Source: Parachlamydiales bacterium
GTDB lineage: Bacteria > Chlamydiota > Chlamydiia > Chlamydiales > CALOCV01
DNA length: 64,000 nucleotides
Direction: 5' to 3'
Assembly (NCBI GenBank): GCA_942491955.1
Contig: CALOCV010000027.1
Span: forward strand, 250 to 64,249
Shown here: piece after piece, positions 9,273-30,660 of the stretch
How positions within the stretch are numbered: position 1 is the stretch's first letter
Layout: the number at the start of each line of letters is the position of its first letter
Made by a program: the position numbers and the translations under genes
The notes under the pieces: model-generated
The model's database searches: none
The model's input: the letters and a program-made list of their open reading frames with translations, nothing else
What the model was told of the DNA's origin: nothing

Positions 9273-9325
9273 GAATGAGGCAAAAGCCTCTGACGAGGCT
9301 CTTGCCTCATTCTAAATTTTTTTTT
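9273..9325 (+). terminator. Intrinsic terminator-like hairpin after uvrA
   Basis: GAATGAGGCAA-A-AGCCTC-TGAC-GAGGCT-C-TTGCCTCATTC followed by a T run. Confidence 0.65.
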
Positions 9326-9366
9326 GGGGAACCCCCCTGCGGCTGCTTCGCAGCCTTGCATTTGTC
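9322..9366 (+). repeat. GC-hairpin element, internally deleted copy (hairpin 3 only)
   Basis: TTTTGGGGAACCCCCCTGC-GGCTGC-TTC-GCAGCC-TTGCATTTGTC; last 27 bp match the reverse complement of 14845-14871 at 25/27. Confidence 0.75.
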
Positions 9367-9437
9367 GCACGCTGTATCCTATTGGCCTTATTTACAGAAA
9401 GAATGGTACACTACCAGAATTGATGATCGAATGCCGT

Positions 9438-10022
9438 AAAATAGAGTGCAAGGTCTAGGAATGTAGGATAGCAACTACGAAATACGGCGAAAAGATGGGT
9501 TTATTTGACAGTTACGCAGCAACTGATCCAAAATACAGAGAAAAACTTCTCAAATTAATGTTCTAATTGATTATCACTGTTGCGTATAAAGAGAAACAAG
9601 ATAAGCAGGATCGCAGGCGGCATGATGATCAGGATGATGAACTCTATCGAAACAGCACCCTAAAATCGTTTCCGTGAGTTCTTGGTAAAGTGGTTGATCT
9701 TTATCTTGCATATGTTGCCGCTTGCGATCCTTCATATCCTTGTTTTTTTAAGAAATACTACAATGTCAATTTTATTGTCTCCAAATCTTATCTCCAAAAA
9801 TTTACATTCGTTGTTTTGTCCCACCATTAAAATGGGTTTTCCAGATCATGGAGGGAATAGGTGTGGTATATTTTTACAACGAGTCAATTTCGCAGACGGT
9901 TCGAGAGGTAATAACGAATCTCAACCAGCTCAGGAGAAAGATAATTTGGTTATTTGGAAAAACTGCAGCTTGGATATATGGGATAATTCATGAAAATAGA
10001 GTGCAAAGTCTAGGAATGTAGG
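9438..10022 (+). repeat. 30-bp direct repeat pair (9438-9467 and 9993-10022)
   Basis: AAAATAGAGTGCAA(G/A)GTCTAGGAATGTAGG, 29/30 identical. Confidence 0.85.
9594..9745 (-). pseudogene. GxxExxY protein N-terminal remnant between imperfect inverted repeats
   Basis: Minus strand reads ...QPLYQELTETILGCCFD then runs into a repeat; arms share AAACAAG(G)ATA and GGATCGCA(G/A)GCGGCA. Confidence 0.55.
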
Positions 10023-10055
10023 TTCTGTGTCTTTGAGTTTCTGTGTTGCTATGTA

Positions 10056-11912
10056 TTACAACTGGAGATCAAGAAATAGATTCTTATCGTTTAAAAAGTG
10101 CAGAATAATTTTTGCTCGCTCCTTATGCCATTCTGGAACTGTTTTGCTAGCTTCGATGTATTCTTTAAATATTTTCTTAAAGGCCTCCGTATCCATGATG
10201 CTCCGCACAAAGGTTTCATATTCAGTAAATGCCTTTTCTGCTTCGTCTCTTTCATTGTTTAGCAAATGAGCAAAAAATCTAAAATGGAATCGAGTAAGAG
10301 CGATTAACTCAAATGGGTGAAGCGGTTCTTTGCTATAATGAATGCTAGACATCATGCGAGAAACAAAAACACCTAATCCCACACTCACCAAGCTCCCCAA
10401 CCATTTACTCATGTCCACTACCGTTTGGACGACTTGTTGAGAGCCTGTTTGTTGTGTCAACATAACTACTTTTTCCACTTTTAGGGTTTCGTAAAATACC
10501 CTAGCACTTTCCCTTGCCATCGTCGCCATTACTTCTATTTTTTCCTTCTCCAGAGCCCCTTTCCCTTGCAATTCACTTATATGCTTAACGCACCCACTCG
10601 CCATTTTCATAGAACCTTCCATTACCATTTCTTGTACCTTCTTCACTGAGCCTTCTCCTATCATTTTTGGTACATTCTTAGGATTCTGAATAATTCCACT
10701 AAAACTGTATACGAGAATACCAGCAGCAACAGCCGATCCTCCTGCCAGAAGAAATGTCGTGCCCCACCCATCAGGGTTGTAGCCTATTTCGGCAGATAAG
10801 AGTTGTTCGGCAATTTTTTCAATAAAATTCTTACATTCCTCAGGATCATCCAGGGCAAGTCTTGCTAATTGCTCGTTAAATTGCTGGAAATGTTTTTCCT
10901 TTTTGGGAGAATTTGCGTGATGAGTAAGATAGCGAAACCATGCATACTGAATCGATAAACCAGCTCCAGTCGCAAAAAAGACTCGAGTTGGCAACTTGGG
11001 AAAAAGAGCTTTAAAAAAACTAGGTTCTGTTAAAAAATTAAGTTTCTGTACAGTCTCATAGCCCTGTCCTGGCTGTATTTGAGAAGCGCGCCTTCTTGAT
11101 CGCCCTGTGTTTTGATAATTGGGATCGGTTTCATAATCTCTATTCCCTCGTATCAATATTCCTATCACTTTTTTATGAACTCGATGATAAACAGGTGACC
11201 CGGAATTACCACTAAAGGCGTCTACGTTCGTTTCAAAATGGCAAGAGTCCTCCCCCTTAATTTCTGCATTTTCCACAAATTTCAATGGTAGCCCAGAAGG
11301 GTGTCCCAACATATACAAAGGTGTTGCTAGCGGTAATGTTTTAACGGGAAGAAGGGGAAGCGGTTTTCTTCCTTTCACCTTCCTATCCAATTTGATTAAG
11401 GCCCAATCGTTGCCCTGATCGGAAAAAAAGTGGGCAACGACTTTTTTGATCGTATATACACTATCTTCCCCAAAAGATACCGTTGTTTGATCTGGTTGAT
11501 TCTGTTGGAAATCAAAAATCACCTTTGTGTTCTTGATTCGCTGTTGATGTAATTGATTCACCCCCTCTTCACATACACAATGGCCGGCTGTTAACATCCA
11601 GCGGTCTGTGACTAAAAAAGCCGTTCCCCATCCTGGAACAGGTTCATCGCAAAACGCTTCGTTTTCTCCAAAAGGCATTTTTCTCCCTACCTGTGTTTTT
11701 AAAGTCGGCACCTGTGAAGAAAAATGATAATTTCCGTTCGGACCTTGTTGTAAGCACCCCTTCGAAACCAGACAAGCCACGCTCTTTGCTTGTTCTTGTA
11801 TGGTTTGGGCAAATGCGTGACCCGCTATTTCATGCATATTCTTTCGCTCGTCTACAGCACCGTAAATGGCTTTTGGTACTTGGAGAGAATAGCTTGCGCC
11901 TGATATATCCAT
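10056..11912 (-). CDS. Trypsin-like (V8-type) serine protease with a C-terminal helical/hydrophobic extension
   Basis: Triad motifs TAGHC, DWALIKLD, GNSGSP; no signal peptide; two hydrophobic segments in the C-terminal half. Confidence 0.85.
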   Translation of the reverse strand: MDISGASYSLQVPKAIYGAVDERKNMHEIAGHAFAQTIQEQAKSVACLVSKGCLQQGPNGNYHFSSQVPTLKTQVGRKMPFGENEAFCDEPVPGWGTAFLVTDRWMLTAGHCVCEEGVNQLHQQRIKNTKVIFDFQQNQPDQTTVSFGEDSVYTIKKVVAHFFSDQGNDWALIKLDRKVKGRKPLPLLPVKTLPLATPLYMLGHPSGLPLKFVENAEIKGEDSCHFETNVDAFSGNSGSPVYHRVHKKVIGILIRGNRDYETDPNYQNTGRSRRRASQIQPGQGYETVQKLNFLTEPSFFKALFPKLPTRVFFATGAGLSIQYAWFRYLTHHANSPKKEKHFQQFNEQLARLALDDPEECKNFIEKIAEQLLSAEIGYNPDGWGTTFLLAGGSAVAAGILVYSFSGIIQNPKNVPKMIGEGSVKKVQEMVMEGSMKMASGCVKHISELQGKGALEKEKIEVMATMARESARVFYETLKVEKVVMLTQQTGSQQVVQTVVDMSKWLGSLVSVGLGVFVSRMMSSIHYSKEPLHPFELIALTRFHFRFFAHLLNNERDEAEKAFTEYETFVRSIMDTEAFKKIFKEYIEASKTVPEWHKERAKIILHFLNDKNLFLDLQL

Positions 11913-28765: not shown

Positions 28766-28778
28766 AAAATCTTCATCA

Positions 28779-29114
28779 TTACTGCGGACGATAAGGATAT
28801 TGTCTTCCTGTGGGCGGTTCATACTCGCTGCGATGAGAGCGCCGTCGGAAGTTGTTAGCACGGATGCGCGTGTTTCCCTCAAGATAGGCTCTTTTTTGGT
28901 ATTGCCAGTTCTCGCGAACATCCCAGTTCGCTCGATCGCGGTTTCTCTCGTACAAATCGAGCCGATCACTTCGCCGAGTCAACAACCCCTCTCCTTCTTC
29001 TTTAGGCCACCACAATGTGGAAAACACGAGTGAAGGGATCAACACAACCCCTACTACCAAGAAGAGAAAATACCATTGCAACCGTTGTTGCGTGATCGAT
29101 TCCAACATATTCAT
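28779..29114 (-). CDS. Small membrane-anchored hypothetical protein
   Basis: One TM segment then an Arg-rich tail; no family recognised. Confidence 0.45.
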   Translation of the reverse strand: MNMLESITQQRLQWYFLFLVVGVVLIPSLVFSTLWWPKEEGEGLLTRRSDRLDLYERNRDRANWDVRENWQYQKRAYLEGNTRIRANNFRRRSHRSEYEPPTGRQYPYRPQ

Positions 29115-29170
29115 ATATCATCAGGAAATTTTTTTCTTGTCAATTCACTGGAATGTGTTAAAAAAAAAAT

Positions 29171-30647
29171 ATGAAAACGTCTCATACGATGGTTCAACAT
29201 CCTCGGACAGAACAAAAGCTAGCCCTGACTACCCAGGTACAAAAAGGGCTCCATCTGCTCCAACTCCCCACCCATGAACTCATCTCTTTCATTGAAATGG
29301 AAATCACCAACAATCCCCTTCTCGAATTTTCTGAGGAGATAACCCCTTCTGAAGAAATCGATGAATCCTTCCAGTATGAAGATCAAGAACTCGATTTTTC
29401 TCAAGACGATTTTGCTCTGCTCACCCACCTCGATGAAGAGTACGATGATTTCTTCTTCCAAAAAGAATTGTTTCAAGACCCTTATATTGCAAAACCTCCT
29501 TACGAAGAACAGTTTCCGTCCCATGACACACTATACGAACACCTCAAAAAGCAACTCCTCGAAAAATGGGATGAATATTCTCCCCAATACATCATCGCCG
29601 AACAACTCATCGGCTATATCTCTCCCCAAGGTTTTTTCGATGATTCCATCACGACCATGGCTCAAGAAAACCACTGGAACCCTCATACCGTTGCACAAAT
29701 CATCGCCACCATCCAACAATTGGATCCCCCCGGCATCGGCGCAAGAACCCTGCAAGAATCCCTCCTCATCCAATTGCAGCGGCAAGGAAAAAAAAACCAC
29801 CCTCGCCTATACAATCCTACAACACCACTATGATCTCCTTCTCAAAAATCGCCTTCCCGAAATCGCAAAACACCTCCATATTCCCCTCCATCACATCACG
29901 CACACGATCCAATATGATATTGCCCCCCTCAACCTCCACCCAGGTTATTCCTTTTCCTATCAACCCAACCCACACGAAATACCCGACCTCATCATTGAAG
30001 AGAATGAAGAAGGACTCCTCATCGCAAAACTTCCCGCCGAAGGAACCCCTGCCATTGCCTTCCATAAAGACTACACCTCAGCGCTCCTCTCTTCCCCATG
30101 GAAACGCTATATCAAAAAAAAAATGAGAGAAGCAGAATGGCTCCTCACCATGCTCCATACACGACAAAGACTCTTACTCGAAATCGGTGAAGCTTTTATC
30201 CAAGCCCATAACACCTACTTCTCCGAGCGAACAGGAGAACGCACCCCACTTACCCAACAACAACTTGCAAAAAAACTGCACGTCCATCCATCAACCATCA
30301 CCCGTGCCGTCATCAATAAAATCGTTCTTACTCCTCAAGGTCTCTTCCCCATGCAAGACTTCTTCTCCTCCAAATACATCTCCCCCGAAGGGAATGAAAT
30401 CTCCTCCCACACCATAAAAGAACACCTCACCACCCTCATCCAACAAGAAGACCCCCTCCACCCCCTATCCGATCAAACTCTCTCCCAACAACTCGACTCC
30501 CTAGGATACTCCTGCTCCCGAAGAACCGTCGCCAAATACCGCCACCAACTCGCAATCCCCAATACGCGCCAACGCAAACGCTTTTTGGGGGACCCGTCCC
30601 CCAACCCCCCTGCTGGGGCCCAAGGCCCCAGACCCCGCGGCCGCTAA
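29171..30647 (+). CDS. rpoN: RNA polymerase sigma-54 factor; +1 frameshift at A9 (29788-29796)
   Basis: QKGLHLLQLP..EL...NPLLE, DPPGIGARTLQESL, VHPSTITRA, RpoN box RRTVAKYR; ORFs 29171..29833 and 29361..30647 join at QGKK/TTLAY. Confidence 0.93.
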
Positions 30648-30660
30648 CGCGGCCTTGTAT
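30582..30660 (+). repeat. GC-rich three-hairpin element overlapping the rpoN 3' end
   Basis: GGGGGAC-CC-GTCCCCC, AACCCCCCTG, CTGGGGCC-CAA-GGCCCCAG, ACCCC, GGCCGC-TAAC-GCGGCC, TTGTAT. Confidence 0.75.

Follow-up and report, generated by a model that had tools for sequence, protein, structure and literature searches.

Does the GC-rich hairpin element that recurs at the ends of uvrA, tatD and rpoN in a Parachlamydiales bacterium belong to the mRNAs of these genes, or is it a repeat that is kept as DNA? The question is raised by a stretch of 64,000 nt (assembly GCA_942491955.1, contig CALOCV010000027.1, positions 250 to 64,249 of the forward strand; hereafter the window), in which exactly three copies of the element were found. 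A first-pass annotation had described it from the sequence as three hairpins (H1, H2 and H3) followed by TTGYAT. In our study, we see an even chance that the element is a lineage-specific, non-autonomous, GC-rich mosaic palindromic repeat, similar to the repetitive extragenic palindromes (REP) and bacterial interspersed mosaic elements (BIME), which is kept palindromic at the DNA level. It looks like an inserted selfish or REP-like repeat, a kind that is already known, and not like a new class of regulatory RNA.

Structure of the element

The motif ACCCC, the hairpin H3 (GGCNGC-loop-GCN'GCC) and the hexamer TTGYAT are common to all three copies. Written as the pattern ACCCC N0-8 GGCNGC N3-4 GCNGCC TTGYAT, this core of 29-31 nt matches the window three times, after uvrA, after tatD and across the rpoN stop, and not once in 100 dinucleotide-preserving shuffles, which confirms the three positions that had been annotated. 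A chance resemblance or a sequencing or assembly artefact is hardly conceivable, because the patterned core stands at three independent loci in unique gene contexts, bears no resemblance to adapters and has stem differences that are compensated between the copies. An artefact would be favoured only by the frame breaks of this assembly at homopolymers (C26 in uvrA, A9 in rpoN), for which reason the G, C and T runs within the element may be of inexact length.

The full unit consists of two modules, each a GGGG-N-CCCC hairpin with a following (A)ACCCC, then H3 and finally TTGYAT(TTGTC) (Table 1). The order H1, H2, H3 and TTGYAT had been recognised correctly; however, H1 too has an (A)ACCCC behind it, so that the hairpin-plus-ACCCC module occurs twice. 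The H1 and H2 hairpins start with GGGGACCC, GGGGAACC, GGGGCTCT, GGGGAGCA and GGGGCCCA, and the tail TTGCATTTGTC is present in copies 1 and 2. The unit GGCAGGGGCT of the tandem in copy 2 is at the same time the left arm of H1 in this copy.

Copy 1 is without the right arm of H1, without H2 and without the second ACCCC. Since it has the linker AACCCCCCTGC in identical form to copy 3 while the intervening segments are gone, copy 1 is derived from a fuller element by internal deletion. The first-pass annotation had noticed that H2 is missing here, but what it took for H1 is the leftover left GGGG paired with the C-run linker.

Among the copies no homology was found past the tail or 5' of H1; the similarity ends at these borders. 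The sequence AACGCTTTT 5' of copies 2 and 3 was considered as a shared part of the element and rejected, as it belongs to the native coding sequence of both genes. A sigma-54 promoter (GGC..N..TTGCA) was rejected by inspection, the spacing being 17 nt instead of 12 nt. Searches of the window for hairpin plus tail, for GGGG...CCCC hairpins and with an nhmmer profile revealed no further full or partial copies. This profile was aligned by hand from the three copies, as the MAFFT alignment was out of hairpin register. Peptides encoded by the element are short, of low complexity and different between the copies. Judged by their sequences, the three copies are homologous.

Base pairing and predicted folds

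All eight stems are perfect and comprise about 56 pairs, every one of them Watson-Crick and none G-U. H3 varies among the copies solely at stem position 4, where the partner follows (T-A, A-T and C-G in copies 1, 2 and 3), and the compensatory pairs had thus been read correctly. The same is true for the observation that H1 and H2 change and stay paired: in copies 2 and 3 they differ in sequence and length, yet each stem is a perfect Watson-Crick helix. In the predicted folds these hairpins form on both strands, the antisense strand folding as well as the sense strand. Strict Watson-Crick stems that are predicted to fold on either strand would fit palindromes at the DNA level more than a selected RNA. 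The earlier statement that the structure is under selection went too far, for three copies cannot prove it and are too few sequences for a usable statistic of covariation.

H3 has a GC stem of 6 bp and a loop of 3-4 nt, and as in intrinsic terminators this stem is followed by UUGCAUUUGU in two copies. A lenient terminator scan (5 T in 8) of H3 with UUGCAUUUGU is passed by copies 1 and 2 and failed by copy 3, which modifies the earlier annotation that no poly-U tail is present. In contrast to intrinsic terminators, two copies have a broken U-tract and copy 3 has none; moreover, termination alone would leave the conserved upstream modules and the stem sequence unexplained.

These features bear on a second explanation, in which selection acts on the transcript and maintains the pairing. 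The element would then be an RNA module at the 3' end of the mRNA, where the hairpins, above all H3 with its U-rich tail, serve in termination or as a block to 3'-5' exonucleases, and a position at the stop codon perhaps modulates the end of translation. We consider this rather unlikely. It is favoured by the fact that H3 and the tail are the sole part kept in all copies, with H3 plus TTGCATTTGT passing the lenient scan in copies 1 and 2, whereas the missing G-U pairs, the equally good antisense fold and the lack of a U-rich tail in copy 3 speak against it. Furthermore, no Rfam family was matched, a check that the first-pass annotation had proposed: only a tRNA reached the gathering threshold in the whole window, and permissive local scans gave best E-values of 0.095 and 0.75, far below gathering.

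Besides the hairpins, the sense strand of the element contains the tract array C4-N2-4-C4-N15-16-C4-N3-C4, and G4-TCT-G4-N15/16-G4-N2-4-G4 is found on the antisense strand in copy 2 as well as in copy 3. Copy 2 additionally carries GGGG-CTGGCA repeats on its sense strand (14918-14958, minus strand), which form a G4N6G4N6G4N6G4 motif. An i-motif or a G-quadruplex switch might possibly arise from the C4/G4 tract array of the element.

Insertion and placement at gene ends

For tatD and rpoN the placement at the gene end, as described before, was found again: copy 2 begins 2 nt past the tatD stop (14963-14961) and copy 3 where the native rpoN stop would be. Copy 1, however, begins 64 nt past the uvrA stop (9256-9258). 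Because a separate hairpin that looks like a canonical terminator, and a T9 run, stand between the two, it may be outside the uvrA mRNA.

The comparison with relatives allowed us to assess how the copies came to these sites. The C-terminus of TatD in the window (NARTLFRI) is the native end, and in a relative keeping the exbB-exbD / dsbD-tatD synteny the 3' flank of tatD is a plain spacer of 74 nt without the element. The closest sigma-54 homolog ends with ...RQRRQFL*, and in its DNA the TAA is followed by an AT-rich spacer, again without the element. The window protein instead reads ...RQRKRFL and continues with GDPSPNPPAGAQGPRPRGR*; the native rpoN stop is missing in every frame, and the open reading frame (ORF) gains 19 codons until it terminates at a TAA (30645-30647) inside the H3 loop of copy 3. 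Since the rpoN and tatD ends of relatives are without the element, the copies are insertions and no ancestral gene-end motifs. With the element absent from orthologous sites and one copy shortened, a dispersed decaying repeat would fit better than the conserved 3'-untranslated region motif that had been suggested. Synteny with relatives breaks right after tatD (14279-14960, compared with 10778-12138 in the relative L087): in relatives tatD is followed on its own strand by a gene for 126 aa and by psd, and the window has instead copy 2, a miniature inverted-repeat transposable element (MITE) and a convergent AAA-ATPase gene.

All three copies are located between convergent genes and in the same direction as the upstream gene, which on the DNA corresponds to the orientations +, - and + within 21 kb. 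This speaks for the RNA module, as terminators are expected between convergent genes, the element is always sense to the upstream gene, and two copies abut the stop codon. In addition, a strict mechanism of single-stranded DNA (ssDNA) on the lagging strand would not predict an orientation that tracks the genes rather than one DNA strand, and an RNA-level role would. However, the co-orientation of three out of three copies has a chance probability of 1/8, copy 1 behind its separate strong hairpin is maybe not transcribed with uvrA, and the orthologous gene ends are without the element.

Stop codons are abutted by copies 2 and 3 and by one palindrome of terminal inverted repeats (TIR) after mnmE, which is described below. 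According to a rough estimate (about 3% per insertion), three of four placements at a distance of 5 nt or less from a stop are very unlikely by chance.

The sites were also compared with those of IS200/IS605 elements. A miniature derivative of this family (PATE-like), with its autonomous copy elsewhere, H1 as left-end and H3 as right-end hairpin, would insert 3' of a short target, for example a T-run, and would have neither inverted repeats nor a target duplication. Indeed, TIRs and target duplications are absent, a claim of the first pass that holds; furthermore, the asymmetric ends with their different hairpins, the single-strand hairpin logic, the conserved right end TTGYAT and a T-run before copies 1 and 3 (TTTTTTTTT before GGGG, TTTTT before GGGGG) recall the PATEs. 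We nevertheless regard this origin as decidedly unlikely. Among only three sites, the target may not be conserved, copy 2 being preceded by TAGCA and not by a T-run; no matching autonomous element is known, no TnpA/TnpB is encoded in the window except the transposase described in the following section, and the mixed strands within 21 kb contrast with the strong strand bias of IS200/IS605 elements.

A TIRYT transposase with palindromes of its own

At a distance of 12 kb from copy 3, the window encodes a Y1/HUH transposase of the TIRYT type that has GGGG...CCCC palindromes of its own, and the search for a co-occurring transposase, as advised by the first-pass annotation, was therefore successful. 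The HVH (HUH) motif and the tyrosine motif Y-IHLNPV are present in its sequence, and the score against NCBIfam REP_Tyr_transpos is 64.8 bits, which does not reach the cut-off of 80. The deposited protein is a version of 280 aa that starts 35 codons later than the 315-aa ORF. In the sequence collection this protein was found on one contig only, as expected for a single-copy transposase of the domesticated type.

In the class of TIRYTs and TIRtrons the TIRs share the motif GGGGWSAS (Di Nocera et al. 2013, PMC3733652), and TIRYTs with Bac_DnaA_C form subclass 2.1.2 (Quentin et al. 2018, PMC6006769). From its sequence, the ORF at 43108-44055 together with its flanks belongs to the TIRYTs, being a RAYT-related Y1/HUH protein with a C-terminal helix-turn-helix (HTH) and GGGGWSAS TIRs. 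The TIR palindrome consists of TTGGGGTCAGGCCTGACATTCGGACATTTG, GAA and the reverse complement (63 nt in total), and its outer motif GGGGTCAG conforms to GGGGWSAS. In three relatives with TIRYT proteins of 61-63% identity, the gene is flanked by the same sequence of 28-31 nt as inverted repeats. The segment 43060-44139 is a complete TIRtron with a head-to-head TIR dimer at each end, whereas these relatives carry single TIRs. The palindrome copy at 43048-43125 has an extra half-site (ATTGGAGTCAAC) equal to that of the solo palindrome.

One of the relatives, L081 (38% GC), has a palindromic MITE of about 94 nt clustered around the TIRYT gene, with the ends GTCTGGGGCC...GGCCCCAGAC, which are identical to H2 of copy 3 minus its centre. 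At least five full or partial copies of this MITE (TGTCTGGGGCC...GGCCCCAGACA) are located within 4 kb around the gene, and arrays of AAAGGGGTCAG half-sites are found there as well.

The element and the TIR palindromes resemble each other at the foot of their hairpins: (T/C)TGGGG...CCCCA(A/G) of H1 and H2 matches the foot of the TIR palindrome, TTTGGGG is the start of copies 1 and 3 and of all three TIR palindromes, and C(A/T)GACCCC is common to both. We suggest that the element would be recognised and moved as folded ssDNA by a HUH/Y1 transposase, and that the hairpins would be kept thereby. The TIRYT at 43108-44055 is a candidate for the mover, since its ends are also TTTGGGG...CCCCAAA palindromes and the solo copy also abuts a stop. 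After insertion, the element would be transcribed with the upstream gene and probably serve, as a by-product, as a weak terminator or as a stem-loop barrier at the 3' end.

A number of observations weigh against a mobile REP-like repeat and against this partner. The known copies are only three, all from one window of 64 kb, and their orientation follows the upstream gene in each case and not one replication strand. Identity between element and TIR was not found beyond TTTGGGG/CCCCAA and C(A/T)GACCCC; in GGGGWSAS the WSAS part is not matched by H1 and H2, and for H3 with the tail there is no counterpart in the TIRYT ends. No copy of the three-hairpin element flanks the Y1 gene, whose flanks are the 63-nt palindrome GGGGTCAGGCC.... 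Finally, 118 kb from eight loci of relatives, either TIRYT-bearing or syntenic, did not contain the element by regular expression or nhmmer profile. The TIRYT is the only candidate for a trans-acting partner in view, and we infer its link to the element from the co-occurrence in one window. The more specific proposal that the three-hairpin unit is a TIRYT substrate, aimed at the first bases after stops and co-opted as an mRNA 3'-end structure, is a long shot.

Table 1. Positions and composition of the hairpin element, the TIRYT transposase and associated palindromes. Coordinates are those of the window, except for the last row.
Feature	Position	Strand	Description
Copy 1, shortened	9326-9366	+	nhmmer E 4.9e-05, profile positions 57-92 only
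Copy 1, parts		+	GGGG AA CCCCCC TGC; H3 GGCTGC-TTC-GCAGCC (9341-9355); tail TTGCATTTGTC (9356-9366)
Copy 2, full length with 5' G-tract tandem	14958-14845	-	nhmmer E 4e-19
Copy 2, tandem	14947-14918	-	degenerate GGCAGGGGCT units, 3 exact
Copy 2, H1	14926-14908	-	GCAGGGGC-TCT-GCCCCTGC; then ACCCC (14907-14903)
Copy 2, H2	14901-14881	-	CTGGGGAGC-ATG-GCTCCCCAG; then ACCCC (14880-14876)
Copy 2, H3	14870-14856	-	GGCAGC-TTC-GCTGCC; then tail TTGCATTTGTC (14855-14845)
Copy 3, full length	30585-30660	+	nhmmer E 8.1e-17
Copy 3, H1	30585-30604	+	TTGGGGGA-CCCG-TCCCCCAA; then CCCCCCTG, C6-TG linker (30605-30612)
Copy 3, H2	30613-30631	+	CTGGGGCC-CAA-GGCCCCAG; then ACCCC (30632-30636)
Copy 3, H3	30639-30654	+	GGCCGC-TAAC-GCGGCC; then tail TTGTAT (30655-30660)
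Terminator-like long hairpin 5' of copy 1	9274-9311	+	then T9 run (9317-9325)
Y1/HUH transposase, TIRYT type, single-copy	43108-44055	-	315 aa; Pfam Y1_Tnp E 1.4e-15 and weak Bac_DnaA_C HTH
Perfect 63-65-nt palindrome, 3' side of TIRYT gene	43060-43124		TTTGGGGTCAGGCCTGACATTCGGACATTTG GAA CAAATG...CCCCAAA; two TIRs head to head
Identical 63-nt palindrome, 5' side of TIRYT gene	44077-44139
Solo TIR palindrome	26203-26277		with extra 12-nt half-site TTGGGGTCAGCA; 2 nt after mnmE stop, upstream of nth
MITE copies in relative L081	810-890, 1396-1534, 1909-1972, 3280-3373, 4769-4808

Comparison with known systems

REP elements act both as transposase substrates and as mRNA 3' structures, and BIMEs have known side-effects on mRNA 3' ends. 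Readings of the present element at the DNA and at the RNA level would likewise not exclude each other. In function, REP/BIME and other hairpin elements of the Y1 type come nearest to it. With the REP/BIME and RAYT systems of Enterobacteria and Pseudomonas it shares short GC-rich extragenic palindromes in mosaic modules, the location at gene 3' ends and between convergent genes, the lack of TIRs and target duplications, and a single-copy Y1 transposase in the genome (PMC3733652). The differences are that the element has neither a GTAG or CGTC head nor inverted doublets (REPIN), that it has three distinct hairpins in a fixed order, that the Y1 gene is flanked by another palindrome, and that only three copies are seen, in a window of 64 kb; for REP/BIME, extragenic copies number tens to hundreds in a whole genome. 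The flanks of H1, H2 and H3 are TTT/GCA/CTG, TGC/CGC and TGC/TAC/CGC, respectively, and neither tetranucleotide is present.

The window contains a genuine TIRtron, with a Y1 and DnaA_C-like protein, TIRs starting with GGGGTCAG, and dimeric as well as solo TIRs. The element shares with TIR repeats of this class the start (T/C)TGGGG and the end CCCCA(A/G) of H1 and H2 (PMC3733652, PMC6006769), but only GGGG and the TT/AA foot are common, the WSAS part being different. The element is without the features that define a REP (GTAG, flanking transposase) and without those of TIR-derived repeats.

Rickettsia palindromic elements are longer than the present element and located mostly inside genes. Together with mitochondrial GC clusters and repetitive hairpin-forming elements (see PMC2800124), they are similar to it as GC-rich hairpin repeats that invade the AT-richer genomes of intracellular organisms or organelles; a relation in sequence would not be expected. 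Such repeats can enter reading frames, just as copy 3 adds 19 codons to sigma-54.

Distribution of the element

A scan of GTDB (185,579 genomes, one per species) with the pattern CAGACCCC-N-H3-TTG resulted in 47 matches at 42 loci, all of them attributed to chance: they occur in unrelated, mostly high-GC taxa, none has H2, and complementary N positions were counted in 11 of the 47, which is the chance rate. In JGI metagenomes, a pattern fitting all three copies gave 36 loci, again chance matches only. The remark of the first pass on similar GGGG..CCCCAGACCCC repeats in other bacteria is not supported by these 47 genome matches and 36 metagenome loci. In viral contigs the pattern fitting all three copies gave two chance matches and a second pattern none, and neither the element nor the TIR palindrome had a blastn match in a plasmid collection. 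The closest homologs of the neighbouring proteins are 67% (TatD), 63% (TIRYT) and 41% (sigma-54) identical. The element family looks limited to this lineage, and it is a previously undescribed, small family of GC-rich mosaic hairpin repeats.

Host of the window and further repeats

The G+C content of the window is 45%. Its genes fmt-lpxA-fabZ-lpxC-lnt (34111-39090, minus strand) are arranged in what we take to be a Chlamydia-type order, UvrA is enlarged and matches the long chlamydial model PRK00635 below its cut-off, and the nearest named homologs are from metagenome-assembled genomes of Chlamydiales, Waddliaceae or Simkaniaceae. These features point to a Chlamydia-like bacterium as the host. 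Its lineage is isolated, in view of the homolog identities given above. Two paralogous large Sel1-repeat proteins of 815 and 848 aa are encoded next to each other (45856-50800); this family is often expanded in amoeba-associated chlamydiae.

Two homopolymers are associated with breaks of reading frames. Inside the enlarged uvrA, the C26 run (7718-7743) is located at the frame change between the ORFs 3536-7930 and 7264-9258 and takes the place of a segment that both paralogous UvrA segments have as CxTCACCCCCxC...; phase variation of this tract, a lesion of a pseudogene or an error of sequencing could each account for the run. The second break is found in rpoN at the A9 run (29788-29796), where the N-terminal 200 residues are encoded by ORF 29171-29833 (36% identical to P0001) and the remainder by ORF 29361-30647.

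Further repeats were detected in the window. A MITE-like repeat of 168 nt with terminal inverted repeats of 32-36 nt (TTTTATACCAATTCCGGTAAGAAAGTGCAC...) is present in two copies of opposite orientation and 97% identity (3275-3442 and 14555-14722) and in a partial one (44910-44996); one copy follows element copy 2 on its downstream side, at a distance of 120 nt. A unit of 164 nt with inner inverted repeats is duplicated in tandem between ORF 19133-19813 and obg (19811-20138, 99%), and short related pieces are found at 24528-24551 and 25637-25660. A pair of 40-nt inverted repeats (95%) is located at 14396-14435 and 24263-24302, each downstream of an AAA-ATPase gene (12852-14279, ATPase_2; 22898-24049, AAA_14+DUF4143), the latter copy adjoining a tRNA gene (24343-24415). 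This pair may represent the ends of mobile cassettes.

Significance

As it stands, the finding comprises three copies of an unclassified hairpin repeat on one metagenome-derived contig. For annotation it is of use, as the extension of rpoN and small, GC-rich spurious ORFs can be explained; for the field the finding comes as no surprise. The placement of two element copies and one TIR palindrome next to stop codons is a possible handle on site choice or survival of such repeats, and stop-abutting insertions could show how C-termini of proteins are reshaped, as sigma-54 gains 19 residues. If the family is abundant in the full genome, a REP/BIME-like repeat system would be added for Chlamydia-like bacteria, and the poorly understood TIRYT transposases would gain candidate substrates beyond their own ends. 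Should the element prove to be a TIRYT substrate, this would be the first system of a REP-like repeat and its transposase described in Chlamydiota.

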